Positions 10,308 to 40,197 of a stretch of DNA of 64,000 nt are shown here, one piece after another; within the stretch, counting starts at the first letter, position 1; the number at the start of each line of letters is the position of its first letter. This DNA comes from Bacillota bacterium (GTDB taxonomy: Bacteria > Bacillota > Clostridia > Christensenellales > CAG-138), in assembly GCA_023435025.1 (NCBI GenBank), contig JAEYSE010000022.1, forward strand, positions 2,690 to 66,689, read 5' to 3'. The position numbers were made by a program, and so were the translations under genes. The notes below the pieces were generated by a model. It worked only from the letters and a program-made list of their open reading frames with translations, had not been told where the DNA came from and searched no databases.

Positions 10308-10586
10308 CGCGTTCACTCCTAACCGATGCATACGCATCAAAATCATTCAAATAAGAAAGTACCCACCCCAAACCCCGGCAACATGGGCACTTTTGCCAAT
10401 GTACCGTTTGGAGTATTGCCAAATGGGTGATGATATAAACCTTATTGTCCCGCTTCCGCCAAAAAGGGAAAAGGCGCACATCATCCCATACATGTGCAGT
10501 TTATAATAATATCATTGCTGCACACAAGTGTCAATATATGATTTTCTTGAAAGGAAACTTTATTTCCCGGGCAACAGCGCGGTCCA

Positions 10587-20762: not shown

Positions 20763-20838
20763 CGAAACTACAAGGCACCTAGTAGCGGGGAGGGAGCCTC
20801 TTCCCTTCCCGCTTAAACTTTACTTCGGGGTGAGAACT

Positions 20839-23342: not shown

Positions 23343-23347
23343 GACTT

Positions 23348-24376: not shown

Positions 24377-24425
24377 CGCATAGGAAAAGAAATCTCTAAA
24401 GTTCTTGATTGAATGGAGTATTTTT

Positions 24426-25280: not shown

Positions 25281-25314
25281 TCAAATATTTAGAAAAGAAA
25301 GCGAGGATCTGGGC

Positions 25315-26475
25315 ATGTTGGAATTTGAGAATAACGTACCGGTTCATGTGGTATTTGGGTTAAAGAAACTTGAAACGATCGGCGTGCACGTAAAAGCGCA
25401 CGGCAGAAAGGCGCTCATCGTAACCACAGGCAACTTCTTTGAGAAAAACGGCCTGGTGGGCAGAATTCAGGGCTATCTAAGCGCCGAAGGCATACAGAGC
25501 GAGTATTTCTACGATGTCTCGCCCAACCCCCACCTCCATGAAGCGCTTGCGGGCGCAGAATTCGCCAAGAAGACCGGCTGCGACCTCGTCATCGGCCTGG
25601 GCGGCGGCAGCGCCATAGACGGAGCCAAATGTATCGCCGTGGCCGTAGCGCAAGGCGGCGAAGACATATGGGACTACTGGATGGGCAAAAAGACCATATA
25701 CGCGGCGCTGCCCATTATCGCCGTAACCACCACTTCCGGCACGGGCAGCCACATCTCCCCGTACTCGGTCATCACCAATACGGAAACCGGCGAAAAGCCC
25801 GGCGCGGGTTCTCCGCTGCTTCACGCGAAAGTCGCCATCGTGGACCCGGAGCTGATGATATCGCTGCCTAAGAAAATGACAGCTTCCACAGGCTATGACG
25901 TACTCGCCCACGCGATCGAGGCCTATACCAGTAAATCTGCAACGCCGTTCTCGGACCTCTACTGCGAGAAATCCATCAAGCTGGTGGGCAAATACCTGCG
26001 CCGCGTCGTAAACGATGGCAGCGACGTTGAAGCCCGCGTGATGATGGCGCTGGCGGATACGTTCTCCGGCTACGGCATCAGCATCGCCGTTATCACCATG
26101 TGCCACGCCATGGCGCACGCGGTAGGCGGCGTGTGCAACACCGTGCACGGCGAAAGCCTTGCCGCCATGACCCCCGCGGCCATGCGGCACAGCATGAATA
26201 AGAGCCCGGAAAAGTACAAAAACATCGGCGCGTGGCTAGAAGGCTATGACGTAGTACCCGCGGATTGGACCACCGAAAATACTGTGCAGGCCGTGGAAGC
26301 AGTCATCCGCGATATCGGTATGTACGCTCCGCTTTCCACGCAGGGCGTAAAGCGCGAGGACTTTGACAAGATCATAGAAGGCACTATCGGCTACATGGCT
26401 GGCGGCTGCGAGATTGACCCCGCGGCACCGATTTCCGCCGACGATGTGCGCAAGGTTCTCGAGGCTGCCTTTTAA
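25315..26475 (+). CDS. Iron-containing (group III) alcohol dehydrogenase
   Basis: 386 aa. GLGGGSAIDGAKCIA and the metal-His region (YDVLAHAIEAY, CHAMAHAVGG) are typical of the Fe-ADH family (PduQ/EutG/FucO relatives). No N-terminal extension. Confidence 0.9.
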   Translation: MLEFENNVPVHVVFGLKKLETIGVHVKAHGRKALIVTTGNFFEKNGLVGRIQGYLSAEGIQSEYFYDVSPNPHLHEALAGAEFAKKTGCDLVIGLGGGSAIDGAKCIAVAVAQGGEDIWDYWMGKKTIYAALPIIAVTTTSGTGSHISPYSVITNTETGEKPGAGSPLLHAKVAIVDPELMISLPKKMTASTGYDVLAHAIEAYTSKSATPFSDLYCEKSIKLVGKYLRRVVNDGSDVEARVMMALADTFSGYGISIAVITMCHAMAHAVGGVCNTVHGESLAAMTPAAMRHSMNKSPEKYKNIGAWLEGYDVVPADWTTENTVQAVEAVIRDIGMYAPLSTQGVKREDFDKIIEGTIGYMAGGCEIDPAAPISADDVRKVLEAAF

Positions 26476-26487
26476 GGAGGCGGGCAT

Positions 26488-27003
26488 ATGCGGACGATCG
26501 GATATAAAAAGCTTACGAGGGACGCGTTCGCGCCCTATGGTACGTATGCAAGCATACTCAACCCGGAGGGCTGCCGCTTCGGCGAACCTCCGGTAGAGTT
26601 CTACCGCGATATGGCGCAGCAAACTCTGGGCGCAGGCGTCGGCATGGTATCCTATTCCTGCTGCGTGGTGCGCCAGAGGCCCGATTGGGTGCTGGAAAAC
26701 GCGGAATACCACAACCACACCTGCGAGGCCATACTCTGTCTGGACGGCGATTACCTGATGCATGTCGCCCCCGCCTGCCAGGAGCATGAGGAGCCGTGGG
26801 ACAATATTGAGGTGTTTTTGATTCCCAAGGGTACTTTGGTGGTCACAAGGCCCGGCGTTTGGCATCAGGCAGGATTTCCTTACGGCTGCGGCGAAGTACA
26901 TATACTGTGCGCGCTGCCCGAACGCGCGTACGCCAACGATTGCATCTGCAAAACCATACCGGCTGATAAGCGCATCCAAGTGCTGGATGCGATGATGGAA
27001 TAA
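26488..27003 (+). CDS. Ureidoglycolate-lyase (AllA)-family cupin-like protein, function unknown here
   Basis: 171 aa. The N-terminal LTRDAFAPYGTY and the later GVWHQ resemble the AllA pattern (L..EAF..YG ... VWH). The assignment is by pattern only. Confidence 0.55.
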   Translation: MRTIGYKKLTRDAFAPYGTYASILNPEGCRFGEPPVEFYRDMAQQTLGAGVGMVSYSCCVVRQRPDWVLENAEYHNHTCEAILCLDGDYLMHVAPACQEHEEPWDNIEVFLIPKGTLVVTRPGVWHQAGFPYGCGEVHILCALPERAYANDCICKTIPADKRIQVLDAMME

Positions 27004-27060
27004 AAACGCGCCCGTTCCTCCCGATGGCGTGGCGCGGGCAGGAATCAGAAAGGAGCGGGC

Positions 27061-28569
27061 ATGGGCAAACGGTATGTTCTGGGGCTTGACAATGGCGGGA
27101 CGGTAATAAAAGCCGCGCTGTATGACGAAAACGGCGGCGCTTTAAGCTGCGCGCGCATCGGCGTTGACAGCATATTGGGCGAAAACGGCGAAGTCGAACG
27201 GGATATGGATACGCTCTGGGCGGCGAACTGCGCAGTCCTGCGCGAGACCATAGAAAAATCCAACGTTGATCCCCGTCAAATCGCAGGCGTATCCCTTTCC
27301 GGCCACGGCAACGGGCTGTACCTGGTGGATGAGGACTTACACCCCGTAAGGCTAGGCGTCTATTCCACCGATGCCCGTGCGGCGGCGTTTGTAAAGAAGC
27401 TTCAGCAAACGGGCGCAAGCCGCATCATGTTTGAAAAGACCATGTCGGCAGCCTACCCCGGCCAACCGGGACCGCTTTTAAACCATTTGCTGCAGTATGA
27501 ACCGGAAGCCATCAGAAAAGCAAAATGGGCGCTTGGCTGCAACGATTTTATCCGGCTCCGCCTTACAGGAGAGGCCTTCGGAGAAATTTCCGGTGCGTCG
27601 GCCGCGGGCATATTGAACCAAAAAACCCGCGGGTACGATCCTTTCCTGCTCGAAACGATGGGGATAGCAGGCTGCGGGAGGCTTTTCCCTCCCCTCTCCC
27701 CCTCCTTCGGGCTGTGTGGCGTGGTTTCCCGAAAAGCTTCGCAGGAAACCGGGCTTGCGGAGGGTACCCCTGTCGCTGGCGGCATGATAGACCTTACCGC
27801 CTGCGCCATCGCCATGGGCATGACGGATAAAAAAAGGCTCGCGCTGATTGCGGGCACATGGAGTATCAACGAGTATCTCGCGAATATCCCCCCCGTCGCG
27901 CCGGAGCTGCTGCTTTCATCGGTATATTGCATAGACGGCTACTACCTGGTGACGGATGGCAGCACGGCTTCTGCGGGCAACCTCGAATGGTTCGTGCAGG
28001 GCTTTTTGTCCTCCGAACGGGCGCAGATGCAGGCGGAGGGAAAGACAGTATATGACGCCGCAAATCATATGGTCGCTTCCATAATACATGAGGAGAGCAG
28101 CATACTCTTCCTGCCATTTTTATATGGTTCCAACGTGGACGCGGACGTCAAGGCCTGTTTCCTTGGCATCACCGGCAGGCACACAAAGGCCCATATGCTC
28201 CGCGCCATATACGAGGGCGTTGTATTCTCCCACAAAACGCATGTGGAACGGCTTTTAAAATACCGCGATCGGCCGGAAGCCGTACGCATCGCGGGAGGGG
28301 CCGCAAGATCCCGCGTATGGGTACAGATGTTTGCGGATGCGTTGGGTCTGCCGGTTGAGGTATCGGCGGGAGAGGAATTGGGCACCATGGGCGCTGCGAT
28401 GTGCGCGGGCGTGGCGACGGGGGTGTTCCCCTCGTTCCTTGAGGCAGCGAACCGATTCTCCAATGTCGCTTATATTGTGGAGCCCGACCTGAAAAGCAAA
28501 GAACGATACGCGCAGAAATACATGCTGTATCATAAGGCAATCGAACGGCTTTCGCAATTATGGATGTAA
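27061..28569 (+). CDS. FGGY-family carbohydrate kinase (xylulokinase / L-xylulose kinase-like)
   Basis: 502 aa. VLGLDNGGTVIKAALYD (the N-terminal ATPase motif), a GTWS-type block (IAGTWSINEY) and a C-terminal GGAARSRVWVQMFADALG block are typical of FGGY kinases. Confidence 0.9.
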   Translation: MGKRYVLGLDNGGTVIKAALYDENGGALSCARIGVDSILGENGEVERDMDTLWAANCAVLRETIEKSNVDPRQIAGVSLSGHGNGLYLVDEDLHPVRLGVYSTDARAAAFVKKLQQTGASRIMFEKTMSAAYPGQPGPLLNHLLQYEPEAIRKAKWALGCNDFIRLRLTGEAFGEISGASAAGILNQKTRGYDPFLLETMGIAGCGRLFPPLSPSFGLCGVVSRKASQETGLAEGTPVAGGMIDLTACAIAMGMTDKKRLALIAGTWSINEYLANIPPVAPELLLSSVYCIDGYYLVTDGSTASAGNLEWFVQGFLSSERAQMQAEGKTVYDAANHMVASIIHEESSILFLPFLYGSNVDADVKACFLGITGRHTKAHMLRAIYEGVVFSHKTHVERLLKYRDRPEAVRIAGGAARSRVWVQMFADALGLPVEVSAGEELGTMGAAMCAGVATGVFPSFLEAANRFSNVAYIVEPDLKSKERYAQKYMLYHKAIERLSQLWM

Positions 28570-28578
28570 ATGCAAAAT

Positions 28579-28610
28579 GTCCGCCACTCTTTGATGAATG
28601 GCGGGCGTTT
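28579..28610 (+). terminator. Terminator candidate after the kinase gene
   Basis: GTCCGCCA-N12-TGGCGGGC, an 8-bp stem that includes one G:U pair, followed by GTTTCCTTCTCC. The T-tract is weak. Confidence 0.4.
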
Positions 28611-28660
28611 CCTTCTCCTTATACTTTTCAATGCGTTTTGACTTTTGTTATGAAATATTC

Positions 28661-28690
28661 TTGACATACAAATCCCGGCAGGGCTAAGAT
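28661..28690 (+). promoter_or_regulatory. Promoter candidate for the first SorC regulator
   Basis: TTGACA (28661-28666), an 18-nt spacer, then TAAGAT (28685-28690). It lies about 40 nt upstream of the 28732 start. Confidence 0.4.
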
Positions 28691-28731
28691 GAAAGATGCA
28701 TGGGATTTCCAATAACTTTTGAGGTGGCTCG

Positions 28732-29688
28732 ATGGATACAAGGCATGACATACACATACTGGTGCAGGCCGCACAGATGTATTATATGGATGGACTGACA
28801 CAGGAAAAGATCGCGCAGCAGCTGGGTATATCGCGCTCGGCTGTTTCTATGATACTCACCGAAGCGCGGGAGTTCGGAATTGTCGATATTAAAATCAAGA
28901 ACCCGCAGATCAACAACGACGAACTCTCACAGAAAATGATAGAGCGGTTTCAACTAAAAAAATGCTTCGTCATACCTGTTAACGCCAAGCTTCAGCGGAT
29001 ATTGACAAGAATCGTGGCTACCCAGGGCGCGGCAATTGCAGAAAAAGAGATCCGCAGCCACTCCTCTCTGGGAGTCGCGTGGGGTACCACCTGTTATGAG
29101 TTCATGTCCGCCTTTCGCAACACGGAGAATTTGTTCGACGTGCATGTACTGCCGTTGATTGGCGGCACCAACCGCATCGCTTCGGAATACCAGCTCAATG
29201 AAATGGTGCGCATCATGGCCGAAAAGCTGCAGGGGCTCCCCTCTTTTATGTACGCCCCTGCGCTTGCCGAAACCATAGAAGAAAGGGACCTGCATATGAA
29301 AAGCGCATACATGCAGCCCCTGATTGAAAAATGGAATACGCTGGACGTTGCGCTCATCAGCGTGGGCGCACCGCCGGATTATTATAGCAGCAAGCCGCAG
29401 TTCGAGCCGGAGGTTGCCAAACAGCGTTTTGAATCCGATCCTACGCTGGCCGTGGGGGACTTTTGCGCGCGCCGCTTCAACATACACGGCGAGTTCCTGA
29501 ACAACCAGTATAACCGCCGTATCATAGGAATAAGCGAGCAGGAGCTTCGCAACGCGGGCAATGTCATCTGCATGGCGGCTGGGGACCATAAGGTATTGTC
29601 CATATTGGGCGCGCTGCGCGCTGACGTGATCGACATCCTCATCACGGATGAAAATACCGCCGAGCGCGTGATGCGCATCGCGGACTGA
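28732..29688 (+). CDS. SorC/DeoR-type sugar-binding transcriptional regulator (paralog 1)
   Basis: 318 aa. N-terminal HTH (AAQMYYMDGLTQEKIAQQLGISRSAVSMILTEAREFGIV), then a sugar-phosphate-binding domain with GVAWGTT and PLIGG motifs as in B. subtilis DeoR/CggR and SorC. Confidence 0.85.
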   Translation: MDTRHDIHILVQAAQMYYMDGLTQEKIAQQLGISRSAVSMILTEAREFGIVDIKIKNPQINNDELSQKMIERFQLKKCFVIPVNAKLQRILTRIVATQGAAIAEKEIRSHSSLGVAWGTTCYEFMSAFRNTENLFDVHVLPLIGGTNRIASEYQLNEMVRIMAEKLQGLPSFMYAPALAETIEERDLHMKSAYMQPLIEKWNTLDVALISVGAPPDYYSSKPQFEPEVAKQRFESDPTLAVGDFCARRFNIHGEFLNNQYNRRIIGISEQELRNAGNVICMAAGDHKVLSILGALRADVIDILITDENTAERVMRIAD

Positions 29689-29705
29689 TTTCTGTTTTCG
29701 CATAC

Positions 29706-29727
29706 GCCCGGCGGACCGGGCTTTTTT
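29706..29727 (+). terminator. Rho-independent terminator after SorC paralog 1
   Basis: GCCCGG-CGGA-CCGGGC followed by TTTTTT. Confidence 0.7.
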
Positions 29728-29739
29728 ACCGCCGTTGAG

Positions 29740-29755
29740 ATGAACGGTTGTTCAT
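29740..29755. promoter_or_regulatory. Palindromic operator candidate aTGAACggttGTTCAt upstream of SorC paralog 2
   Basis: Perfect 6+6 inverted repeat. The same TGAAC-N4-GTTCA architecture recurs at 30972-30985, and a degenerate copy lies at 19487-19500. Confidence 0.35.
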
Positions 29756-29813
29756 TGCATCCAGGGAATGTGAAAGTAAGTGACGGACAGTATCGGTAAG
29801 TGGAAGGTGCAAA

Positions 29814-30755
29814 ATGGACGAGAGAAGGGACACAAAAATCCTGGTGGCTAAGCTCTACTACACGCAAGGGCTTTCGCAAGAGGAGATCGCAAAGCAGATT
29901 CACCTGTCCCGGCCCACCGTATCGCGGTTGTTAAAAGCCTGTATCGAGGAAGGCATCGTGCAAATCAAAATTGACGATATCTCTTCCCTGGGGCAGGAAC
30001 TTGCAAAGCGCCTTGCGGATACCTACGGCATAAAAAAAGCGATCGTGGTGCCGTCCAGCTCCAGCGCGGAGGCGGATAAGGAACGTGTCGGCCGTGCGGC
30101 GGCAGGATACCTGCAGGAAATACTGCTTCCCAAAATGCTCATAGGTATCTCCTGGGGCTCCACCATACATGCCGTGGTACAGCACCTCGATCCCCCCAGC
30201 TTTATGAAGGCCGACGTCATTCAGCTTCTGGGCGGCACAGGCAGCAAGACAGGCGATACGGATGCAAACTCCATGGCGCTCTCCCTCGCGCGCGCCCTCA
30301 ACGGTGACGCGTATCTTCTGCAAGCGCCATTTATGGTGCAAAGCAAAATACTGCGGGACCTTTTAATGGAAGAACCGCATATCAAGACGCATTTTGAAAA
30401 GCTCAAGCACACGGATATCGCAATCGTCGGGCTGGGCTCCACGAAACCGGCGCTTTCTGCGCAGTTCCGTTCCGGCCATATCAATATGGCGGATTCCGAG
30501 CGGCTGATCGCAGAAGGCGCGGTCGGGGATATCTGCGGAAGGTATGTGGACATCAATGGCCTAAGTTGCCATACGCTATTGAGCGACAAAATGATCGCGG
30601 TAACACTGGACGCGCTCAAACGCATCCCTACGGTTATAGGCGTAGCAGCTGGCGAACAGAAGGCGGATATCATCGTGGGCGCTTTGCGCGGCAGGTATAT
30701 AGACGTGCTGGTTACCGATGAAAAGGCGGCTGTCGGCGTGCTCGGGTACAGATGA
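29814..30755 (+). CDS. SorC/DeoR-type sugar-binding transcriptional regulator (paralog 2)
   Basis: 313 aa. HTH (VAKLYYTQGLSQEEIAKQIHLSRPTVSRLLKACIEEGIV), then GISWGST and QLLGG motifs. Confidence 0.85.
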   Translation: MDERRDTKILVAKLYYTQGLSQEEIAKQIHLSRPTVSRLLKACIEEGIVQIKIDDISSLGQELAKRLADTYGIKKAIVVPSSSSAEADKERVGRAAAGYLQEILLPKMLIGISWGSTIHAVVQHLDPPSFMKADVIQLLGGTGSKTGDTDANSMALSLARALNGDAYLLQAPFMVQSKILRDLLMEEPHIKTHFEKLKHTDIAIVGLGSTKPALSAQFRSGHINMADSERLIAEGAVGDICGRYVDINGLSCHTLLSDKMIAVTLDALKRIPTVIGVAAGEQKADIIVGALRGRYIDVLVTDEKAAVGVLGYR

Positions 30756-30915
30756 GCAAGCGCTTAACGTCCAAAGTATCGGCGTTAAAAATCGCTCCGT
30801 CTTCGCCAAAGACCTCGGACACTACCCTTTCCTAAGAGCGCCCGCAGCGAAGGTGCAGCAGAACACCCCTAGGTAGCAATGCTTAAACAAAACACATAAT
30901 GTCCTTTTAACACAC

Positions 30916-30943
30916 GCGGCTCCATGCGAGCCGCCTTTTTATT
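30916..30943 (+). terminator. Rho-independent terminator after SorC paralog 2
   Basis: GCGGCTC-CATGC-GAGCCGC followed by CTTTTTATT. Confidence 0.75.
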
Positions 30944-30971
30944 GCGCCCATATAGCCTGTCCATATATGCG

Positions 30972-30985
30972 TGAACATATGTTCA
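30972..30985. promoter_or_regulatory. Palindromic operator candidate TGAACatatGTTCA upstream of the BMC operon promoter
   Basis: Perfect 5+5 inverted repeat 17 nt upstream of the -35 candidate. It shares the 11-mer GAACATATGTT with the ABC-operon promoter (19488-19498). Confidence 0.35.
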
Positions 30986-31001
30986 ATATAGTGCCTCTAT
31001 A

Positions 31002-31030
31002 TTGACATGGGTGTATGGACGCAGTATTAT
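31002..31030 (+). promoter_or_regulatory. Sigma-70-type promoter candidate for the BMC operon
   Basis: TTGACA (31002-31007), a 17-nt spacer, then TATTAT (31025-31030). It is followed immediately by the inverted repeat TGACAAATGTCA (31036-31047) and lies about 50 nt upstream of the rpe start. Confidence 0.55.
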
Positions 31031-31079
31031 AAATTTGACAAATGTCATGAACAATGTTAAAGGTCAACAGGAGCACATC

Positions 31080-31742
31080 ATGAAGCTATCTGCGTCCATA
31101 TTGTCGGCGGACCATCTGCGTCTTGGCGCGGAAATAGAGCGGGCGGTTTCCGCCGGGTGCGAGTACCTCCACCTGGACGTCATGGACGGCCACTTCGTTC
31201 CCAATCTTGCCGTAGGTGTTTGCACCGTGGAAGCGCTCAGAGGAGAAACCCGTCTTCGCAAGGACGCGCACCTGATGGTATCCAATCCCGAAGTCCTGAT
31301 CGAGCCCTTCATCAGCGCGGGTGCAGACTCCATCACCATACACGCAGAAAGCACCCCCCACCCTATCCGCCTGCTGCGGGAAATCAAAAGAGCGGGAAAG
31401 CTCGCGGGCCTGGCTCTTACCCCCGAGACCCCGGTGGAAGCGGTGCACACCGCCCTGTTTGAAGCGGATATCGTGCTGCAAATTTCGGTCTGCGTGGGCT
31501 TTGGCGGGCAGAAGTTCATCGTCCCGGTATATGAAAAACTACGGCAACTCCGCGAATACAAGGCGCGTTACGGCCTTAACTTTGAGATACAGGTGGACGG
31601 GGGCATCAACGCCGAAACCGCAGGCATTGCCGCTGAATGCGGCGCCGAAGTCCTGGTGGCCGGCTCCGCGCTGTTCTGCGCGGCGGATATGAGGTCTGCT
31701 GCGAACGCTTTACGTAACCCAACGCCAAACGGCGTATATTGA
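31080..31742 (+). CDS. rpe: Ribulose-phosphate 3-epimerase
   Basis: MKLSASILSADHLRLGAEIERAVSAGCEYLHLDVMDGHFVPNL... is a canonical Rpe N-terminus (S.L.AD, H.DVMDG.FVPN), with VDGGI later. RBS AACAGGAG lies upstream. I rejected the tracked TTG extension from 31002 because it overlaps the promoter. Confidence 0.9.
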   Translation: MKLSASILSADHLRLGAEIERAVSAGCEYLHLDVMDGHFVPNLAVGVCTVEALRGETRLRKDAHLMVSNPEVLIEPFISAGADSITIHAESTPHPIRLLREIKRAGKLAGLALTPETPVEAVHTALFEADIVLQISVCVGFGGQKFIVPVYEKLRQLREYKARYGLNFEIQVDGGINAETAGIAAECGAEVLVAGSALFCAADMRSAANALRNPTPNGVY

Positions 31743-31766: not shown

Positions 31767-32555
31767 ATGGGTCTATATTCCGACAACCTGAAGGATAAGG
31801 TCTGTGTGGTAACGGGCGCGGCAAAAAGCATCGGCTTTGCCATTGCGCAAAAGTATGCCGAGCAGGGCGCAAAAGTGGTGCTTCTGGACATCGATCCGTT
31901 GGTGGAGCGTTCCGCCGAAGAACTGCGGGAAAAGGGGTTCCAGGCGTTCGGCGCCGTGCTCAACATCACGGACAGGGAGGCTGTGTTAAAGACCTTCGAG
32001 CGTATCGTGGAGGAGCACGGCGAGATCTATGCGCTGATCAATAACGCGGGCGCAGTAGACCAGAGGCCCTTTGAAGAAAACGACGAGGCCGTGTTCGAAA
32101 AGATGTTTAAAATCAACGTCTATGGCACCGCCTGGTGCATTCAGGGCGCAATCGAAAGCATGAAGCGGCAGAAGGATGGCCGCATCATCAACTTCTCCTC
32201 CAAATCCGGCAAGACGGGTTCGGCACTGATGGGCCCGTACAGCGCGGCAAAAGGAGCGATCATTTCACTGACTCAGGCGCTCGCGTACGAGTACGCGCCC
32301 TACAACATCAAAATCAACTGTGTTTGCCCCGGCATTACGGACGCCACGGGCGTATGGTCCAGCGTGAGCGCCGGGTATATCGACAACCTGCATCTTCCCC
32401 GGGAAGAGGTCATCAAGAAATTCACGGCAAAGGTGCCTTTGGGAAGGCTTACGGATAAGCAGGATCTGGTGGACTTTGTGTTCTTCCTCACGGTATCCGG
32501 GGATTACTGCACCGGGCAGGCGTTCAACATCACCGGCGGCCGAGAGATGCACTAA
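31767..32555 (+). CDS. Short-chain dehydrogenase/reductase, sorbitol-6-phosphate dehydrogenase (SrlD)-like
   Basis: 262 aa. Shows TGAAKSIG (Rossmann) and YSAAK (catalytic Y-x3-K). [12 protein letters not shown]...[16 protein letters not shown] resembles my recollection of E. coli SrlD (INSKSGKVGS...YCTGQSINVTGGQVMF). Confidence 0.85.
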
Positions 32556-32566
32556 AGGAGGCGCGT

Positions 32567-33406
32567 ATGGATATTGAAAAACTCGTCCGGGAAATCACCG
32601 CGGAGGTTCTAAAAGAAGTGGGCGGTACGGCGGGCACATCCGCGCTGCAGCCCAGAGAATCCAAAAGGGACATGAGCTACGGCAAATACATGGATCATAC
32701 CGTACTCAAGCCCGAAACCATAAGATCTTCCGTGAAGCGCTTCTGCGACGAAGCGAAGGAATGGGGCTTCGCCAGCGTATGCGTCAACCCCACGCACGTG
32801 AAATTCGTGTCCAATGAGCTCAAGGGCACAAGCGTGAAAACCTGCTGCGTCATCGGCTTCCCTCTGGGCGCGAACACGCCCTTTGTCAAGGCCGTGGAGG
32901 CAATGGAAGCCGTCAAGAACGGCGCCAACGAAGTGGACATGGTCATCAACGTTGGCGCGCTCAAGGATAAGGATTACGACCTGGTACTCGCGGATATCAA
33001 GGGCGTGGTGGACGCCGCGCATCCCACAGCAGAGGTCAAGGTCATCATCGAAACCTGCCTGCTGACGGACGAGGAAAAGGTTCGCGCGTGCGAGCTTGCC
33101 AAGCAGGCCGGTGCGGATTTTGTAAAGACGTCCACGGGCTTCGGCTCTGGTGGGGCGACTGTGGAAGACATCCGGCTCATGAAGCGCACCGTGGGGGACA
33201 GCATGCGTGTGAAGGCCTCCACCGGCATCAACGACAGGGCCATCTGCGACGCCATGATCGCTGCAGGCGCCGTGCGCATGGGCACCAGCAAGGGCATTAA
33301 GATCATAATGGGCGAGGAAGAGCAGAAGCAGTGCACGAACTGCGGCAACTGCAAAGCCTCCTGCCCAAGCGGTAACGTGACCATCCAGAAAAAGAGCGAC
33401 TATTAA
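32567..33406 (+). CDS. deoC: Deoxyribose-phosphate aldolase family enzyme with an encapsulation-peptide-like N-terminus and a C-terminal CX2CX2CX3CP tail
   Basis: 279 aa. The DeoC core has [21 protein letters not shown] (Schiff-base Lys context) and VKASTGI. About 35 extra N-terminal residues begin [18 protein letters not shown] (amphipathic helix). About 35 extra C-terminal residues contain [12 protein letters not shown]. Confidence 0.9.
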
Positions 33407-33431: not shown

Positions 33432-33707
33432 ATGGATAAGCAGGCATTGGGCATGGTGGAAACAAGGGGTCTGGTCGGCGCGATTGAAGCGGCGGACGCC
33501 ATGGTAAAAGCGGCCAACGTAACGTTGGTTGGCAAAGAACAGATCGGCTCGGGCCTTGTCACCGTTATGGTGCGCGGCGACGTCGGCGCAGTCAAGGCCA
33601 GCGTGGACGCAGGCGCGGCGGCGGCCAAGCGCGTGGGTGAACTCGTAAGCGTGCATGTCATACCCCGGCCCCATCAGGATGTGGAGAACATACTCCCCGC
33701 GAAATGA
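33432..33707 (+). CDS. BMC-H shell protein (PduA/EutM-type hexamer, Pfam BMC domain)
   Basis: 91 aa. [77 protein letters not shown] is a textbook PF00936 sequence. Confidence 0.95.
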
Positions 33708-33732: not shown

Positions 33733-34497
33733 ATGGATCTCGCTTTGAAAGGAAAAACCGTGTTGGTCACGGGCGGCGCGGCCGGCTTAGGCGCGGGCAT
33801 CTGTGAGGTGTTCGCGCAGGAGGGCGCGAACCTGATGGTCAACTATATCGCCAACGAACCGGACGCGAAGCAGTTTGCAAAGACGCTGTACAACCGCTTC
33901 GGCGGCAGGCATATGGCCATTTATGGGGACGTCACCAGCGCGCAGGATGTCGACAATATGATCGACACCGCCGTCAAGGAATACGGCCATCTGGACATTG
34001 TGGTCAACAACGCTGGCATCTGGCCGACTACGCTGGTTGAAAACATGTCCGATGACGAGTGGAACAAGGTCATCAACATCAACCTCACGGGTCCGTTCAT
34101 GGTATCAAAAAGGGCCTGCGTGTATTACAAGAACGCCGGTATCCGCGGGCGCATCGTCAACATTTCTTCAAAATCCGCGTTTGCCGTGAATACTGAAGCG
34201 CACGCGCACTACGTATCCGCCAAAGGCGGGGTTGTGCTGTTAACCAAGGCGCTCGCGCGTGAGTTCTCGCAATACGGCATTATCGTAAACGGCGTGACGC
34301 CGGGCATGGTCAGGACGCCGCTCAACGAGGATAAACTCAGCAACCCGGATATTCTGGCCGCCTATGTTCAGCGCATTCCTTCCGGGCGCGTATCCACCGC
34401 GCAGGAGGTGGGCTATGCGGTAGCGTTTTTAGCCTCCAGCAAGGCGGACTTCATCAACGGAACCTGCGTGGACGTCACCGGCGGCATGCTGATATAA
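33733..34497 (+). CDS. Short-chain dehydrogenase/reductase (FabG/gluconate-5-dehydrogenase-like)
   Basis: 254 aa. Shows TGGAAGLG, NNAG and YVSAK (Y-x3-K), and ends INGTCVDVTGGMLI. Confidence 0.88.
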   Translation: MDLALKGKTVLVTGGAAGLGAGICEVFAQEGANLMVNYIANEPDAKQFAKTLYNRFGGRHMAIYGDVTSAQDVDNMIDTAVKEYGHLDIVVNNAGIWPTTLVENMSDDEWNKVININLTGPFMVSKRACVYYKNAGIRGRIVNISSKSAFAVNTEAHAHYVSAKGGVVLLTKALAREFSQYGIIVNGVTPGMVRTPLNEDKLSNPDILAAYVQRIPSGRVSTAQEVGYAVAFLASSKADFINGTCVDVTGGMLI

Positions 34498-34549: not shown

Positions 34550-35206
34550 ATGTATGAAGCGCAAAAGCGTGAGGTCATAAAAACAGGGCTGGCGATGAAA
34601 GAAACAAGGCTTATCAGCCTTTCCGGCGGAAATGTGAGCCTGCGTTTAGAAAACGGCCACATATTGGTGACTCCCTCCGGCATGATCTACGAGGATATGA
34701 AAGAGGACGACATTCCGGTTCTTGACGCCGACGGCAAGCGTATAGAAGGCACGCTTCGCGAATCCGTGGATACGGTGGCTCTGCTCTACATTTTCGCGCA
34801 TATGCCGCATGTCAACGCGATTCTGCATACCCATCAGCCGTACGCAACCGCTGCGGGGCTCTTAGGCGACGTGCTCCCCGCCGCGGTGACCACGCTCTGT
34901 AACGTTGCCCTAGGGCCGGTCAATGTAGCACCCTACTGCTCCGCTGCAAGTGTTGATATGGGCATACAGACGGTGCAGCACATCGGTGAGCGCCGCGCGG
35001 TCATACTCAAGCACCACGGCGTCATCACGGTGGGCAAGGACTTAAAGGAAGCCCTGTATGCCGCCGTGTATATGGAAGACGCCGCGCTCACCTGGCTCAT
35101 GGCAAAGGCGGCGGGCGTACCTGCGCTGCTGACACCGGAACAAATAACAGACGCCGTAGAGATTCATAAGACCTACGGCCAGCCTAAAAAAGGCCATGGA
35201 GCCTGA
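34550..35206 (+). CDS. Class II aldolase/adducin-family protein (L-fuculose-P aldolase or L-ribulose-5-P 4-epimerase-like)
   Basis: 218 aa. Shows GGNVSLRL, the metal His cluster ILHTHQPYATA, and KHHGVITVGKDLKEA. These are the conserved blocks of FucA/AraD/UlaF-type enzymes. I cannot discriminate aldolase from epimerase by eye. Confidence 0.85.
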   Translation: MYEAQKREVIKTGLAMKETRLISLSGGNVSLRLENGHILVTPSGMIYEDMKEDDIPVLDADGKRIEGTLRESVDTVALLYIFAHMPHVNAILHTHQPYATAAGLLGDVLPAAVTTLCNVALGPVNVAPYCSAASVDMGIQTVQHIGERRAVILKHHGVITVGKDLKEALYAAVYMEDAALTWLMAKAAGVPALLTPEQITDAVEIHKTYGQPKKGHGA

Positions 35207-35855
35207 GGCGCTCCGGCGGCGGGTGACGCTTGCCGTAACCAAACAACTTTTTCTTGCCGGCCAGGGACGGTATGTGCCCGCGGCTGTCTCGGCACGCCAC
35301 CTGCACCTTTGCCCGGCAGACGTTGAAGTGCTTTTTGGCAAGGGATATTCGCTCAACAGGGAACGGGATCTTGTGCAGCCCGGCCAGTACGTCTGCACGG
35401 AGAAAGTCGCGTTTGTGGGGTCCAAGGGCCGCATAGATGGTATCCGCGTGCTTGGCCCGACGCGAAAAGAAACGCAGGTGGAGCTTTCCATGACGGATTG
35501 CTACAAGGTGGGTATCGTCCCATTTGTGCGGATGTCCGGAGAGCTTGCAAACACAACGGGCGGGAAACTCATTGGCCCTGCAGGCGAGGTGACGCTGAAC
35601 AGCGGCGTTATCGTGGCTGCACGGCATCTGCATATGTCAACGGAACAGGCTGCGCTCTATGGGCTAAAAGACGGAGACGTTGTGGACGCCAGGATGTCTG
35701 GTGACAGGGGCGCCGTATTCTTAAATATCCCGGTACGCGCCGGGAGCGCACATGAAATGGAACTGCATCTGGATACCGATGAAGCCAATGCTGCGGGTTT
35801 TCGCGGCGGGCTTGTCGAACTCTTGGAGCATAACGGGGGTCAGTATGGTAGATGA
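35196..35855 (+). CDS. pduL: Phosphate acyltransferase PduL (phosphotransacylase)
   Basis: 219 aa. Two PduL repeats are present (SARHLHLCPADVEVLFG and ARHLHMSTEQAALYG), plus the C-terminal HLDTDEANAAG. About 30 extra N-terminal residues (MEPEALRRRVTLAVTKQLF) could be a targeting helix. The start overlaps the upstream stop by 11 nt. Confidence 0.9.
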   Translation: MEPEALRRRVTLAVTKQLFLAGQGRYVPAAVSARHLHLCPADVEVLFGKGYSLNRERDLVQPGQYVCTEKVAFVGSKGRIDGIRVLGPTRKETQVELSMTDCYKVGIVPFVRMSGELANTTGGKLIGPAGEVTLNSGVIVAARHLHMSTEQAALYGLKDGDVVDARMSGDRGAVFLNIPVRAGSAHEMELHLDTDEANAAGFRGGLVELLEHNGGQYGR

Positions 35856-36492
35856 GGAACTGATTGCACGTATTACGCGGGAAGTGCTCGCCCGCATCCC
35901 GAATGCGCCGCAGCCTAAGACGCTCGTGGTGTTCCCCGGGTATTTGTATGAGCAGGACGCCGTTGCAAAGCATCTGGCTGAAAAGCACGGCAGCGCGGAA
36001 GTGGCGCTGTTTGGGGATGCGGCGGTTCGGCATCCGCAGCTTACCGTGGTTGAAACAGGCACGCAGGCGCAAAGGCAACAGCTTGCAATGCGGCTAAGTG
36101 GCTATGAGAATATCGTGATTGTCACCCCGCCTTTGGAATACCTCTATGTCGCGGCAGAAGGCGATGATTCGCGCCTGGATACGGCGCTGATGCTTCGCCC
36201 GCTGCTGTGGCGCAAAAAAGTGACGCTGCTGTTGGATTATGTGCCGCCCAGGAACAGAAGCGGGTTCTCCCGGCTGACCGACAGCCTGGAGATGCTGCAG
36301 AATATGGGTGCCGCAATTGAAACGCTGCCGAGGCTTTCCAACGCGGGTGGCGAAGCGAAAGAACTGGTCAGTGCCCAGGACATCCGGGACGCCGCGGCAG
36401 GTTCGGGGTATATCCGTCTGGCGCCCCGCGCCATCATCACGCCGCTTGCGGCCGATATGGCGAAGGAACTGGATGTAACAATAGAAAGGTAA
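35845..36492 (+). CDS. Uncharacterised BMC-associated protein with an encapsulation-peptide-like N-terminus
   Basis: 215 aa from the ATG at 35845, overlapping the pduL end by 11 nt. Begins MVDEELIARITREVLARIPN (amphipathic helix followed by a Pro-rich linker). I recognise no catalytic motif. The C-terminus reads IRLAPRAIITPLAADMAKELDVTIE. I rejected the tracked start at 35752 because it would overlap pduL by about 100 nt. Confidence 0.65.
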   Translation: MVDEELIARITREVLARIPNAPQPKTLVVFPGYLYEQDAVAKHLAEKHGSAEVALFGDAAVRHPQLTVVETGTQAQRQQLAMRLSGYENIVIVTPPLEYLYVAAEGDDSRLDTALMLRPLLWRKKVTLLLDYVPPRNRSGFSRLTDSLEMLQNMGAAIETLPRLSNAGGEAKELVSAQDIRDAAAGSGYIRLAPRAIITPLAADMAKELDVTIER

Positions 36493-36502
36493 GGAACACC
36501 TT

Positions 36503-36805
36503 ATGCAGATCGCACGGGTTCGGGGAAGCGTGGTAAGTACAAATAAAACCGAGAAGCTGCATGGGCTAAAACTGCTTGTGGTGGTACCCATTGAGTTGAA
36601 CTCGTTTGAGGAGAAGGGCTCCCCCATCGTCGCCATCGATACCGTTGGCGCGGGGCCGGGAGAGGTCGTAATGCTCTGCGGCGGAAGTTCCTCGCGGCAG
36701 ACGCCGCTTACCGAAAACAAGCCCTCCGATATGGCAATCGTGGCGATCATCGATTCGATAGAGATGAACGGCAATACCATTTTCAGAAAGTATGGCGGCG
36801 ACTGA
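36503..36805 (+). CDS. BMC-P vertex (pentamer) protein, EutN/CcmL family (paralog 1)
   Basis: 100 aa. MQIARVRGSVVSTNKTEKLHGLKLLVV...AIDTVGAGPGEVVMLCGGSSSR...AIVAIIDSIE is a typical PF03319 pattern. Confidence 0.9.
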   Translation: MQIARVRGSVVSTNKTEKLHGLKLLVVVPIELNSFEEKGSPIVAIDTVGAGPGEVVMLCGGSSSRQTPLTENKPSDMAIVAIIDSIEMNGNTIFRKYGGD

Positions 36806-36822: not shown

Positions 36823-38241
36823 ATGAGCCTGACAGATCAACAGATTCAAAGCATTGTGGAGGACACGCTTAAGAATCTCCGGCGCGTGCATACCGGAGCG
36901 GGCGTGCAGGCGGAAGCGGGCGCAAGCTGGCTTTGCGACACTATGGATGAAGCAGTTTCTCTTGCTGCGGCCGCGCAGAGGGAACTGATGCAAAAAACGC
37001 TCGCGGACCGCGAGCGGTATATAGAAGCCATGCGCCATGCCGCCAAAGAAAATGTGTTGAAGCTTTCGGAGCTGGCGCACCAGGAAACGGGCTATGGCAG
37101 CGTGGAGCATAAGAAGCTCAAGAACCTCCTGGCGATCGAAAAAACGCCGGGCGTTGAGGACTTGCAATCTGACGCTGTTTCCGGGGATTTCGGGCTGACG
37201 TTAATTGAACGGGCGCCTTTTGGCGTTATCGGAGCCATTACGCCCTCCACCAACCCGACTTCCACTGTCATCAACAACAGCATCAGCATGATAGCGGCTG
37301 GAAACGCCGTGGTGTTCAACCCGCATCCTGCGGCTAAACGCGCCTCCACCGAGGCCATGCGAATTCTCAACGAAGCCATCCGCGCGGCGGGCGGGCCAAA
37401 AACACTCATCTGCACTGTGAAGGAGCCCTCTCAGGAAAGCGGCAAAGCTTTAATGGAGCATAAGAATGTTCCGCTGCTGGCAATCACCGGAGGCGAAGCT
37501 GTGGTACGCCTCGCGATGAAGACAGGCAAGAAGGTAATCGCCGCAGGGCCCGGCAACCCACCGGTGATTGTGGACGATACCGCCCTTATCGAAAAAGCAG
37601 CCAAGGATATTGTGGATGGCGCGAGCTTTGACAACAACGTGCTGTGCATCGCCGAAAAAGAGGTATTCGTATATGAAGGTGTGGCGGGCGCGCTGATCAT
37701 GGGCATGCAAAAGCACGGCGCGTATCTTGCCAGTACGGGCGAAACGGAGAAGATCGTCAACACCGTGTTCACGAAAAAGGACGGCAGGTATATTCTCAAC
37801 CGCCAGTTCGTGGGCAAGCCGGCAACGCAAATCCTGCGCGAAAGCGGCATCCGCTTTGACGGAAGCCCGCGCCTTGTAATTGCCGATGTGGATGAATGCC
37901 ATCCATTCGTCACCGCTGAAATGTTGATGCCGGTATTGGGCATTGTGCGCGTCAAGCACGATATCCACGCAGCCATAGAAAAGGCCATTATCGCAGAGGA
38001 CGGCTGCAGGCATACCGCCATCATGCATTCTCAAAACGTCAGCCACCTTTCCATGGCAGCGAAGGCGCTCAATACGACCATATTTGTAAAGAACGCGCCC
38101 TCCTACGCGGGGCTTGGGTTCAACGGCGAGGGGTTTGCCTCCCTTACCATCGCGACGCCGACTGGAGAAGGCATTACCAGCGCGCGGACGTTTACACGCA
38201 GCCGTAGGTGCGTACTATACGGGGATTTTAGGATCGTTTGA
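36823..38241 (+). CDS. CoA-acylating aldehyde dehydrogenase (PduP/EutE-like) with an encapsulation-peptide-like N-terminus
   Basis: 472 aa. Shows GPGNPPVIVDDTA, and DNNVLCIAEKEVFV for the catalytic Cys context as in EutE/PduP. The N-terminus MSLTDQQIQSIVEDTLKNL is amphipathic. Confidence 0.92.
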   Translation: MSLTDQQIQSIVEDTLKNLRRVHTGAGVQAEAGASWLCDTMDEAVSLAAAAQRELMQKTLADRERYIEAMRHAAKENVLKLSELAHQETGYGSVEHKKLKNLLAIEKTPGVEDLQSDAVSGDFGLTLIERAPFGVIGAITPSTNPTSTVINNSISMIAAGNAVVFNPHPAAKRASTEAMRILNEAIRAAGGPKTLICTVKEPSQESGKALMEHKNVPLLAITGGEAVVRLAMKTGKKVIAAGPGNPPVIVDDTALIEKAAKDIVDGASFDNNVLCIAEKEVFVYEGVAGALIMGMQKHGAYLASTGETEKIVNTVFTKKDGRYILNRQFVGKPATQILRESGIRFDGSPRLVIADVDECHPFVTAEMLMPVLGIVRVKHDIHAAIEKAIIAEDGCRHTAIMHSQNVSHLSMAAKALNTTIFVKNAPSYAGLGFNGEGFASLTIATPTGEGITSARTFTRSRRCVLYGDFRIV

Positions 38242-38284
38242 TCCGCAGGCATAAAACAAAAACTTGAAATAAGGAGCGTTTCAA

Positions 38285-38602
38285 ATGGAACTGCAGGCAT
38301 TGGGAATGGTGGAAACAAGGGGTCTCGTCGGCGCGATTGAAGCGGCGGACGCGATGGTAAAAGCGGCGAACGTCTTCCTGGTAGGCAAGGAACAGATCGG
38401 CGCGGGACTGGTCACCGTTATGGTGCGCGGCGATGTTGGCGCGGTAAAGGCTTCAGTTGACGCGGGCGCCGCAGCGGCCAAACGCGTGGGGGAACTAGTA
38501 AGCGTACATGTGATCCCACGCCCTCATGCGGATGTGGAACGAATACTTCCCACCGTGCAAAAGAAGGCGGAAAAGCCGGAGAAAGCTGAAAAGAAGGCAT
38601 AG
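38285..38602 (+). CDS. BMC-H shell protein with a Lys/Glu-rich C-terminal tail
   Basis: 105 aa. The BMC-domain core is nearly identical to the 33432 gene. The tail is [16 protein letters not shown]. Confidence 0.95.
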
Positions 38603-38604
38603 GG

Positions 38605-38868
38605 ATGTATACGGGCGTCGTGGTTGGCTCGGTGGTAAGCACCGTCAAAAACGAAAGCATGAGGGGCATCAAGCTGCTTGTGGTGGAGAAGCGCGAAAAC
38701 GGTAAGCCGGCCGGGCTTATCGTTTCGGCTGACGGCACCAGGCAGGCGGGCAAGGGCGACCATGTCTACCTGATAGGCAGCAAGGAAGCAAGCTTGCTGT
38801 TTGCGGAGCATGGACCGGTGGCGGTGGACTCCGCCATCATCGGGTTTATTGACAGAGTTAACGAATAA
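38605..38868 (+). CDS. BMC-P vertex protein, EutN/CcmL family (paralog 2)
   Basis: 87 aa. MYTGVVVGSVVSTVKNESMRGIKLLVV...GDHVYLIGSKEA...AIIGFIDRV. Confidence 0.88.
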   Translation: MYTGVVVGSVVSTVKNESMRGIKLLVVEKRENGKPAGLIVSADGTRQAGKGDHVYLIGSKEASLLFAEHGPVAVDSAIIGFIDRVNE

Positions 38869-38889: not shown

Positions 38890-39162
38890 ATGGATAAACA
38901 GGCATTGGGCATGGTGGAAACCAAGGGACTGGTCGGCGCGATAGAGGCGGCGGACGCCATGGTAAAAGCGGCGGATGTGCGGCTGATCGGCAAGGAGCGC
39001 ATCGGCTCAGGGCTGGTCACGGTCATGGTACGCGGCGATGTCGGCGCGGTGAAGGCCAGTGTAGACGCGGGCGCGGCTGCGGCCAAGCGCATAGGGGAGC
39101 TCGTCAGCGTTCATGTCATCCCCCGGCCGCATGAAGATGTGGAGGGCATCCTCCCTCAGTAA
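38890..39162 (+). CDS. BMC-H shell protein (third paralog)
   Basis: 90 aa. [57 protein letters not shown]...VHVIPRPH. Confidence 0.95.
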
Positions 39163-39172
39163 GGAGGCGTCT

Positions 39173-39442
39173 ATGTTGCTCGCCAAAGTAACGGGCACGG
39201 TGGTCTCCACGATAAAACATCCGTCCCACCATGGCCAAAAGCTGCTGATGGTGCAGCCTATTGGCCTTGACGGGGGCGCGATTGGCGCGCGGCACATCGC
39301 GGTTGACGCCGCGGACGCGGGCGTAGGCGATACGGTGCTTGTCAACAACGACGGCGGCGCCGCGATTATGATACTCGAAGACAAGCGCGCAATCATCGAT
39401 ATGACCATCTGCGGCGTGATCGACCATGTGGACGTGGAGTAA
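39173..39442 (+). CDS. BMC-P vertex protein, EutN/CcmL family (paralog 3)
   Basis: 89 aa from the ATG at 39173, with AAGGAGG 6 nt upstream. MLLAKVTGTVVSTIKHPSHHGQKLLMVQP...AVDAADAGVGDTVLV...ICGVIDHVDV. I rejected the tracked upstream extension because it overlaps the preceding BMC-H gene. Confidence 0.88.
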   Translation: MLLAKVTGTVVSTIKHPSHHGQKLLMVQPIGLDGGAIGARHIAVDAADAGVGDTVLVNNDGGAAIMILEDKRAIIDMTICGVIDHVDVE

Positions 39443-39459: not shown

Positions 39460-40197
39460 GTGAAACCGGAAGCCATAGAGGCAATTATTCAGCAGGTGAC
39501 AAAAGAAGTGATGGCCGCGCTCAGTGTTGAACACAGCGAAGCCTCGGGCGCGGAAGTGGCCTGCACCATAGAGCATAGCGTGTTGAACCCCGACATGACG
39601 GAAGAGCGCATCAGAACGGCCTGCAATGAGGCTGCTGCGTGCGGGCTTGCGAACGTCTGCGTATCGCCGTACTTTGTGCCGCTGGCTGCGGAACTTTTAG
39701 CCGGAAGCGGCGTGAAGGTCTGCACGGTGGTGGGGTTCCCGCACGGCGCGGCATCCCGAAGGGCCAAGGAGGCGGAAGTGCGGGAAGCCATATTAAACGG
39801 CGCTCAGGAGCTGGACGTGGCGATGAACATACTCGCCATTAAAAGCGGCAAAAGCGACGAAGCGTTGCAGGAGCTTAAAGGCCTGGTGGAAATCGCCCGC
39901 GGCCGCGCCGACGTGAAGGCCATATACGAGCAGAGCCTTTATACGGAAGATGAAAAAAGAGAGGCGCTGCGTATCGCCATAGCCTCAGGCGCCGCGTATA
40001 TCAAGATTTCCAATGCTTTAAGCGGCAAAAAGGCGGAAGCGGAAGATGTACGCTTTGTGCGCGGCATTGTAGGCGAAGGCGTCAAAATCAAAATTGATGG
40101 CGGCATCAACGACGCGGCAAAAATCCAAGAGCTGCAGCAGGCAGGCGCGAACAGGTTTGGATGCAGCAAGTCTGTTCAGATCGTATGCGGGGCATAA
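39460..40197 (+). CDS. Divergent DeoC/LacD-family aldolase paralog with an encapsulation-peptide-like N-terminus
   Basis: 245 aa with a GTG start. The N-terminus (M)KPEAIEAIIQQVTKEVMAAL is amphipathic. The DeoC-like core has LDVAMN, VKAIYE, YIKISNAL (Lys retained but the KTSTG context changed) and IKIDGGI. Confidence 0.82.
   Translation: MKPEAIEAIIQQVTKEVMAALSVEHSEASGAEVACTIEHSVLNPDMTEERIRTACNEAAACGLANVCVSPYFVPLAAELLAGSGVKVCTVVGFPHGAASRRAKEAEVREAILNGAQELDVAMNILAIKSGKSDEALQELKGLVEIARGRADVKAIYEQSLYTEDEKREALRIAIASGAAYIKISNALSGKKAEAEDVRFVRGIVGEGVKIKIDGGINDAAKIQELQQAGANRFGCSKSVQIVCGA

Follow-up and report, generated by a model that had tools for sequence, protein, structure and literature searches.

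A single ferredoxin-type repeat inserted into the catalytic tail of a microcompartment deoxyribose-phosphate aldolase

DeoC1, a deoxyribose-phosphate aldolase (DERA) from a Bacillota bacterium of the Christensenellales, carries a Fer4 (ferredoxin-type) repeat of about 20 residues inserted into its mobile tail, between the last helix of the barrel and the terminal Tyr. DERA is held to be a cofactor-free aldolase. The gene lies in a stretch of 64,000 nt (GenBank assembly GCA_023435025.1, contig JAEYSE010000022.1, positions 2,690 to 66,689 of the forward strand), here called the window, within a bacterial microcompartment (BMC) locus. We establish the identity of the enzyme, the topology of the insertion, its conservation and its restriction to BMC loci, and tentatively propose a role for it in controlling the enzyme. 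As far as the literature was searched the Fer4 insert is new; the enzyme, the compartment and the encapsulation peptide (EP) are known.

Results

A Fer4 repeat lies inside the DERA tail

The original prediction for this DNA had placed the gene on the plus strand at 32567..33406, with an intact DeoC core flanked by about 35 extra residues on either side. The open reading frame (ORF) has 279 codons for amino acids and exactly the termini quoted there. Its parts, and the ribosome-binding site before it, are:

32555..32561, plus strand: strong consensus Shine-Dalgarno (SD) sequence AAGGAGG, with a 5-nt spacer to the ATG (sequence inspection)
32567..33406, plus strand: DeoC1, DERA of BMC type, 279 aa (ORF, family matches and structure)
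32573..32623, plus strand: amphipathic helix of EP type, residues 3-19 (AlphaFold2 (AF2) model, hydrophobic moment (muH) and homologs)
32624..32671, plus strand: flexible, poorly conserved linker, residues 20-35 (low predicted local distance difference test score (pLDDT); varying length and sequence)
32672..33313, plus strand: DERA TIM barrel, residues 36-249, with D124, K187 (equivalent of the Schiff-base Lys) and K216 (profile, alignment and AF2)
33314..33331, plus strand: acidic linker before Cys1, residues 250-255 (length varies among homologs)
33332..33388, plus strand: single Fer4 repeat, residues 256-274, within the catalytic tail (invariant Cys columns; tail profile against Fer4 repeats)
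33389..33403, plus strand: end of the catalytic tail, residues 275-279 (KKSDY), with Y279 the equivalent of E. coli Y259 (homolog comparison)

Conservation was counted over the best 120 database homologs, of which 88, at 62-99% identity, bear the tail. These 88 share the C-terminal pattern C-x2-C-G-x-C-x3-C-P-x-G-N-V-x-I-x-K-x-E-Y, and C256, C259, G260, C262, C266, P267 and Y279 are invariant in every one of them. The motif C-x2-C-x2-C-x3-C-P, which had been read from DeoC1 by itself, is thus the product neither of chance nor of a frameshift. The same conservation rules out an artefact, whether by frameshift or misassembly at the 3′ end or by reading through into a small gene for a ferredoxin, and we regard the probability of such an event as negligible: the same architecture recurs among 88 independent proteins of the database and on more than 12 independent contigs, which come from different samples, the terminal Tyr specific to DERA is kept downstream of the motif, and the gene ends in a normal stop codon followed by the SD sequence and ATG of the next gene, which encodes a BMC-H shell protein. 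No point in support of an artefact was found. A six-frame scan of the 64-kb window gave no second C-x2-C-x2-C-x3-C-P besides the one that starts at nt 33332.

The position of the motif follows from comparison with ordinary enzymes. Non-BMC DERAs from Bacillus, Listeria, Streptococcus and Anoxybacillus genomes all end in G-x(7-10)-Y, and a terminal Tyr is present in 87 of 150 diverse DeoC cluster representatives. In E. coli DERA this residue, Y259, belongs to a disordered tail, which folds into the active site and joins in catalysis (according to reviews). EP-bearing relatives of DeoC1 without the Cys motif end in GExxxxxxKNEY, 12 residues past the barrel, and tailed and tail-less forms differ by one clean block, CxxCGxCxxxCPxGNVxIx (about 20 residues), which separates the acidic start of the tail from KNEY. 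Because the tail-less relatives show a clean deletion and have kept the terminal Tyr, the Fer4 repeat is an insertion and not a C-terminal fusion.

Thus, the earlier picture of a motif fused to the enzyme in about 35 appended C-terminal residues has to be revised: an ordinary DERA tail already comprises 8-12 residues, so that the new part is the ~20-residue insert, and the repeat lies upstream of the conserved terminal Tyr, inside the catalytic tail. The short tail with a terminal Tyr of ordinary Firmicutes DERAs (BH1352, 6d33; Streptococcus suis, 5dbu; Geobacillus, 8qps) and of the E. coli enzyme is also present in DeoC1, but theirs has no Cys, whereas the tail of DeoC1 has 30 residues with the Fer4 repeat inside. 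Cys4 stands 12 residues from the C-terminus in 86 of the 88 tail-bearing homologs and 13 in the other two (DeoC1 and one more), and the linker from G249 to Cys1 ranges from 6 to 13 residues among homologs. No Cys specific to tail-bearing barrels was found: C60, C72, C93 and C175 are equally conserved with or without the tail.

Sequence identity of the insert

Pfam models of the Fer4 family match residues 245-274 of DeoC1, the core Fer4 models residues 253-269. The best score of this type is 22.6 bits for Fer4_10 (cutoff 25.5), with 15.9 for PF00037 (cutoff 21.1), and automatic annotation has already put a Fer4 Pfam label beside DeoC in some database entries. When a profile of 31 tails was compared with PDB sequences, polyferredoxins (FwdF, MvhB) and 2x[4Fe-4S] ferredoxins matched it repeat by repeat in their Fer4 repeats, with the strand that follows Cys-Pro included and at per-repeat i-Evalues of ~1e-4 to 5e-3. 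On sequence grounds the insert is one Fer4 repeat, half of a ferredoxin domain. It shares CX2CGX2CX3CP and a short hydrophobic strand with clostridial 2x[4Fe-4S] ferredoxins and Fer4 proteins (PF00037; FwdF, MvhB). However, known Fer4 domains pair their repeats, so that each cluster has 3+1 Cys, and nearly all PDB matches listed for the tail profile hold at least two repeats, whereas DeoC1 has one, embedded in the catalytic tail of an enzyme.

In a canonical ferredoxin repeat Cys1-3 ligate one cluster, while Cys4, the one in Cys-Pro, ligates the neighbouring cluster. For one repeat with this 3+1 ligation, either tails would pair or a cluster would be incompletely ligated and have an open iron site. 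What had been called the canonical [4Fe-4S] motif is accordingly a ferredoxin-type Cys motif as claimed, but not one that would place its four Cys on a single cluster. The AF2 monomer model shows the tail as coil with a pLDDT of ~60, which is expected if a partner or a cofactor is needed.

In the literature searched (full text, with the exception of the Dwyer 2024 and Schulte 2018 supplementary tables), no Cys, iron-sulfur (Fe-S) or ferredoxin feature was found on any DERA or any cargo of sugar-phosphate utilising (SPU) compartments. The published SPU descriptions consulted likewise mention no such feature, whereas the DeoC1 subfamily has a Fer4 repeat in its tail.

Tail-bearing aldolases are linked to microcompartments

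A check suggested with the original prediction was whether the tail is confined to BMC-associated copies, and this is what we find: every tail-bearing DERA with usable flanks (in the window and in the related loci L001-L004, L006-L008, L081-L084 and L167-L170) adjoins BMC genes. The hosts are metagenome-assembled genomes (MAGs) of Clostridia/Christensenellales and one Treponema MAG. Four of the loci (L006, L008, L081 and L082) are satellite modules of the order Rpe-SDR-DeoC(tail)-BMC-H-SDR with no other BMC gene within 10 kb, which suggests that one BMC-H moves together with the tail-bearing DERA as a unit. L007 encodes two tail-bearing DeoC paralogs (5236-6060 and 10001-10807), the second with the tail GDVDEEHVCINCGACTGTCPTSNVTLTKTAY; two such paralogs would permit heterotypic tail pairing.

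Among other DeoC clusters, the motif was found in none of the best 150 representatives at 50% clustering (1.84 billion representatives searched), a level that folds the whole tail family into one or few clusters. The motif is confined to a single DERA subfamily. A metagenome scan with the core alignment returned relatives of 60-69% identity among the matches listed, none with the tail.

Tail-less forms are interspersed with tail-bearing ones in a neighbour-joining tree of the barrel, where parsimony requires at least 13 changes; the number of losses is put at about ten, and the Cys motif of P0065 has decayed. Since the tail has been lost repeatedly, the enzyme works without the insert, and a regulatory or accessory role fits better than a catalytic one. 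In L172 and L173 the tail and the Tyr are both lost where the BMC context is gone. The L172 sequence has ~275 nt of non-coding DNA (3977-4252) in place of the end of the tail and the BMC-H gene, and its DeoC ends in ..IVKG, right after the barrel; in this lineage the shell gene disappeared along with the tail and the terminal Tyr. No barrel position co-varying with the tail was found.

Aldolase core and encapsulation helix

The intact DeoC core described originally is borne out by all comparisons. DeoC1 matches the TIGR00126 deoC equivalog model over residues 38-247 (277.6 bits, cutoff 117.3; E=5e-83) and Pfam DeoC (PF01791) with E=8.5e-20. D124, K187 and K216 are invariant across 44 aligned homologs. 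We take them to be E. coli D102, K167 (Schiff base) and K201, mapped by motif positions on the E. coli sequence; as a cross-check of this mapping, K184 of BH1352, mutated in 6msw (K184L according to the title), aligns with K216. The closest solved structures are short Firmicutes DERAs of ~59% identity, and the ordinary Firmicutes enzymes listed above have the same catalytic residues as DeoC1. An AF2 monomer model built from 44 homologs has a pLDDT mostly above 90 in the barrel and aligns by Foldseek with Bacillus halodurans DERA (6d33) at a template modelling (TM) score of 0.96, a root-mean-square deviation of 1.5 Å and 59% identity. These matches identify DeoC1 as a bona fide DERA/DeoC (EC 4.1.2.4), predicted to cleave deoxyribose 5-phosphate.

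The extension of ~35 residues at the N-terminus, which non-BMC homologs lack, had been read as an EP-type helix, and the model agrees. AF2 places a helix at residues 3-19, followed by a linker with pLDDT below 50 at residues 19-28; the muH of the helix is 0.51, a value reached by 3% of shuffles, and the consensus MDIxKIVxEVTxxVLxE is present in 86 of the 88 tail-bearing homologs. A short terminal amphipathic helix joined to a poorly conserved linker is what defines an EP, and DeoC2, the aldehyde dehydrogenase (AldDH) and a 215-aa protein of the same locus begin with similar helices. Ordinary DERAs are without such a helix. All SPU DERAs are described as carrying an N-terminal extension (Dwyer, Sutter & Kerfeld 2024, PMC11585597), amphipathic and absent from non-BMC enzymes as in DeoC1, so the predicted targeting to the lumen by the N-terminal EP helix is already known and not new. 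The characterised SPU6 DERA has a longer extension of ~70 residues, with an alpha helix and two beta strands, whereas the EP helix of DeoC1 has ~17.

The microcompartment locus

The genes around DeoC1 are:

31080-31742, plus strand: Rpe (conserved module with SDR1, DeoC1, BMC-H and SDR2)
31767-32555, plus strand: SDR1 (conserved module with Rpe, DeoC1, BMC-H and SDR2)
33432..33707, plus strand: BMC-H shell protein, directly 3′ of DeoC1 (Pfam BMC, E=9e-31; synteny in most related loci)
33733-34497, plus strand: SDR2 (family match)
34550-35206, plus strand: class II aldolase/epimerase family protein, AraD/FucA family (family match)
35196-35855, plus strand: PduL phosphotransacylase (family match)
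35845-36492, plus strand: EP-bearing 215-aa protein, family unassigned (ORF; EP-like start)
36503-36805, plus strand: BMC-P (family match)
36823-38241, plus strand: AldDH, CoA-acylating type (family match)
38285-38602, plus strand: BMC-H (family match)
38605-38868, plus strand: BMC-P (family match)
38890-39162, plus strand: BMC-H (family match)
~39173-39442, plus strand: BMC-P, the third (family match)
39460..40197, plus strand: DeoC2, second DeoC paralog, EP-bearing, 245 aa, GTG start, with no tail and no terminal Tyr

The region from 32.5 to 40.2 kb thus holds the SPU set of shell proteins and enzymes (three BMC-H, three BMC-P, AldDH and two DeoC), and PduL is also present. DERA and AldDH together with a BMC-P triplet are the signature of SPU metabolosomes (Axen 2014; Sutter 2021; Dwyer 2024, PMC11585597), and the locus is of this type, with DeoC1 as its signature aldolase. 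It has the DERA, BMC-H, BMC-P triplet, AldDH and PduL of described SPU DERA loci, and the catalytic D/K/K is kept (PMC11585597). Unlike the usual SPU locus it has a second DeoC paralog instead of RPI, for which no match (PF02502) was found among the locus ORFs scanned; RPI is also absent from SPU5 and part of SPU4 (SPU-defining papers).

DeoC2 is 35% identical to DeoC1, scores above the TIGR00126 cutoff and keeps the catalytic D/K/K, and its EP-like N-terminal helix aligns with that of DeoC1. Its phosphate-binding loop has diverged and reads ISNALSGKKAE. The protein stops right after the barrel, and its gene closes the operon, at the 3′ end, in every related locus that is complete; DeoC2 may be a partner subunit in the place that RPI has in other SPU types.

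The 215-aa protein, whose EP-like start is MVDEELIARITREVLARI, has no Cys and no Pfam or NCBIfam match. Its gene always comes after PduL in related loci, is fused to PduL in L086 (a 424-aa PTAC), and in the window starts at an ATG inside the end of pduL (11 nt of overlap). For the third BMC-P, the mechanical ORF (39113-39442) begins 20 codons before the Pfam match and overlaps the preceding BMC-H, and the true start is likely the ATG at ~39173.

Upstream of the operon lie genes for an ABC sugar transporter, for an L-ribulose-5-P 3-epimerase like UlaE (346 bits, above cutoff), for an Fe-ADH and an FGGY kinase, and for two regulators of the SorC type, and the neighbours of DeoC1 are of the pentose-phosphate epimerase type, not of nucleoside catabolism. 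Taken together, the catabolic genes (19659-31742 and 34550-35206), which comprise the ABC sugar transporter, the UlaE-like 3-epimerase, the AraD/FucA-family protein, Rpe, the FGGY kinase, two SDRs and the Fe-ADH, resemble an L-xylulose/L-ribulose-5-P pentose route and not nucleoside or deoxyribose salvage.

Relation to the MNdh electron path

In metabolosomes, MNdh (a PduS homolog) and the PduT-like shell protein BMC-T(SE) form a path for electrons from NADH to the outside (PMC11626177). Many related loci have MNdh and a PduT-like BMC-T(SE) between AldDH and the shell genes, and in the closest syntenic loci (L001, L002 and L086) MNdh and a PduT-like BMC-T with a pore Cys stand between AldDH and the next BMC-H. 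At the corresponding place in the window (38241-38285) both are absent, with no remnant in the 64 kb, and they are likewise absent from L004 and L084.

Ten tail-bearing loci have complete flanks (the L171 contig ends before the MNdh position). Seven of them also have MNdh and three do not (the window, L004 and L084), three loci have MNdh with a tail-less DERA (L085, L086 and L074), and none lacks both, numbers that are too few for statistics. The idea that the tail replaces MNdh/BMC-T(SE) was hinted at by L004, L084 and the window on one side and L085 and L086 on the other, but it was dropped, since L167-L170 have both tail and MNdh and there is no anticorrelation. As far as this small sample shows, the tail neither depends on nor substitutes for MNdh/BMC-T(SE).

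Like DeoC1, MNdh/BMC-T(SE) (PMC11626177) and the Fe-S shell proteins of GRM loci carry Fe-S motifs on BMC proteins. However, those are dedicated redox or shell proteins, whereas the motif of DeoC1 lies on a non-redox signature aldolase. A parallel is offered by SPU-type compartments of Hodarchaeales (Asgard), in which DERA is fused to a flavoprotein domain (preprint PMC12747264), again a redox-cofactor module on an SPU-type DERA and with its function unexplained. There a whole flavoprotein domain is joined to the enzyme, whereas in DeoC1 a 20-residue Fe-S motif lies within the tail, and the lineages are unrelated.

Discussion

Proposed mechanism and alternatives

We propose, with a probability of roughly 40%, that the tail repeat binds an Fe-S cluster, likely by paired tails, and that it thereby controls the mobility of the catalytic tail and the activity of the enzyme. 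Metal binding, tail pairing and the coupling to activity are what we infer here, with our preference falling in that order. The Fer4 repeat would bind an iron-sulfur cluster, probably [4Fe-4S]. Because the canonical ligation is 3+1, the holo form of a lone repeat would most likely be two paired tails: the tails of neighbouring DERA subunits would build a ferredoxin-like two-cluster unit, which would anchor the base of the catalytic tail and leave the 12-residue, length-conserved segment to deliver the Tyr. The occupancy or redox state of the clusters, through iron, oxygen or the lumenal redox poise, could then set the mobility of the tail and the linkage between subunits, and these in turn the activity of an enzyme that releases acetaldehyde. 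Since the EP occupies the N-terminus and the Tyr must stay terminal, the interior of the tail would be the sole permissive site for such an element. A more specific form of the proposal is a natural split (half) ferredoxin, in which the 20-residue repeats of two chains assemble a 2x[4Fe-4S] unit between subunits, at the base of the catalytic tails; this we think doubtful.

Several observations weigh against cluster-controlled tail mobility. All Pfam Fer4 scores are below the gathering thresholds, and no natural case of a ferredoxin fold built from two single repeats on separate chains is known to us. The tail has been lost repeatedly (at least 13 state changes and one decayed motif), and the lack of a co-varying barrel position argues against a specialised docking surface. 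Moreover, the fixed spacing of 12 residues could reflect just the Fer4 strand plus the conserved KNEY end.

Alternatively, the tail could be a tethered electron carrier in the lumen, a Fer4 relay, paired or not, on the most abundant cargo, for example from NADH-oxidising MNdh to the Fe-S pore of BMC-T(SE) or to some other acceptor, with no effect on the aldolase itself. The MNdh/BMC-T(SE) path out of metabolosomes is established (PMC11626177), 7 of the 10 tail-bearing loci with complete flanks encode both proteins, and the Hodarchaeales flavoprotein-DERA is an independent redox module on the same enzyme (PMC12747264). Against this, the tail is intact in the window, L004 and L084, which have no MNdh/BMC-T(SE), while L085, L086 and L074 have them together with a tail-less DERA. 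A relay also seems unneeded, because MNdh has been modelled as docking directly on BMC-T(SE), with clusters 7-9 Å apart (PMC11626177). The remaining annotated enzymes of the window's locus are from nicotinamide-dependent families, and the window holds no other Cys motif of Fer4 type. On balance we consider an electron carrier unlikely, though not far-fetched. We rate it distinctly improbable that the repeat serves assembly, i.e., that metal-bridged tails link DERA oligomers into the cargo core or dock them on the shell, as a second packaging signal at the C-terminus with no redox or catalytic role. Such a role would fit the restriction of the motif to BMC-linked copies and its loss with the BMC context (L172, L173), the BMC-H gene that nearly always directly follows DeoC1, and the C-terminal EPs of other SPU enzymes (PMC11585597). 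However, the tail is not amphipathic-helical like known EPs but coil in the AF2 model, the adjacent BMC-H has no Cys, and tail-less DERAs occur in otherwise identical complete loci (L085, L086), so that packaging does not require the tail.

The four Cys might also have nothing to do with Fe-S and form a structural Zn knuckle or reversible disulfides, as a rigid or thiol-switch element. Four closely spaced Cys are able to bind Zn, and the scores of the single motif below the Pfam thresholds are in keeping with such a view. The features conserved besides the Cys are, however, specific to ferredoxins (the Gly after Cys2, the Pro after Cys4 and the G-N-V-x-I strand), the PDB matches of the tail profile are Fe-S proteins only, and the hosts (Clostridia/Christensenellales and Treponema MAGs) are anaerobes, in which labile clusters are usual. 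We therefore attach little credence to a non-Fe-S role, and prefer, tentatively, the control of catalytic tail mobility by a bound cluster.

Implications

The SPU compartment is among the most widespread and yet least understood metabolosomes. For the engineering and annotation of DERAs, the tail of DeoC1 calls for caution, in that the terminal Tyr is kept despite 20 residues inserted upstream of it. If a cluster is bound, the repeat would be an element of redox or iron control, or of electron carrying, on a non-redox BMC enzyme, and would connect with the export of electrons from metabolosomes through Fe-S proteins, a recent proposal. It would also be a natural test case for a single ferredoxin half-repeat, which bears on the origin of ferredoxins by duplication. 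And if the split ferredoxin were to hold true, DeoC1 would be the first iron-sulfur-gated class I aldolase, and the redox, iron or oxygen status of the lumen would switch the signature enzyme of the compartment and with it the release of acetaldehyde.

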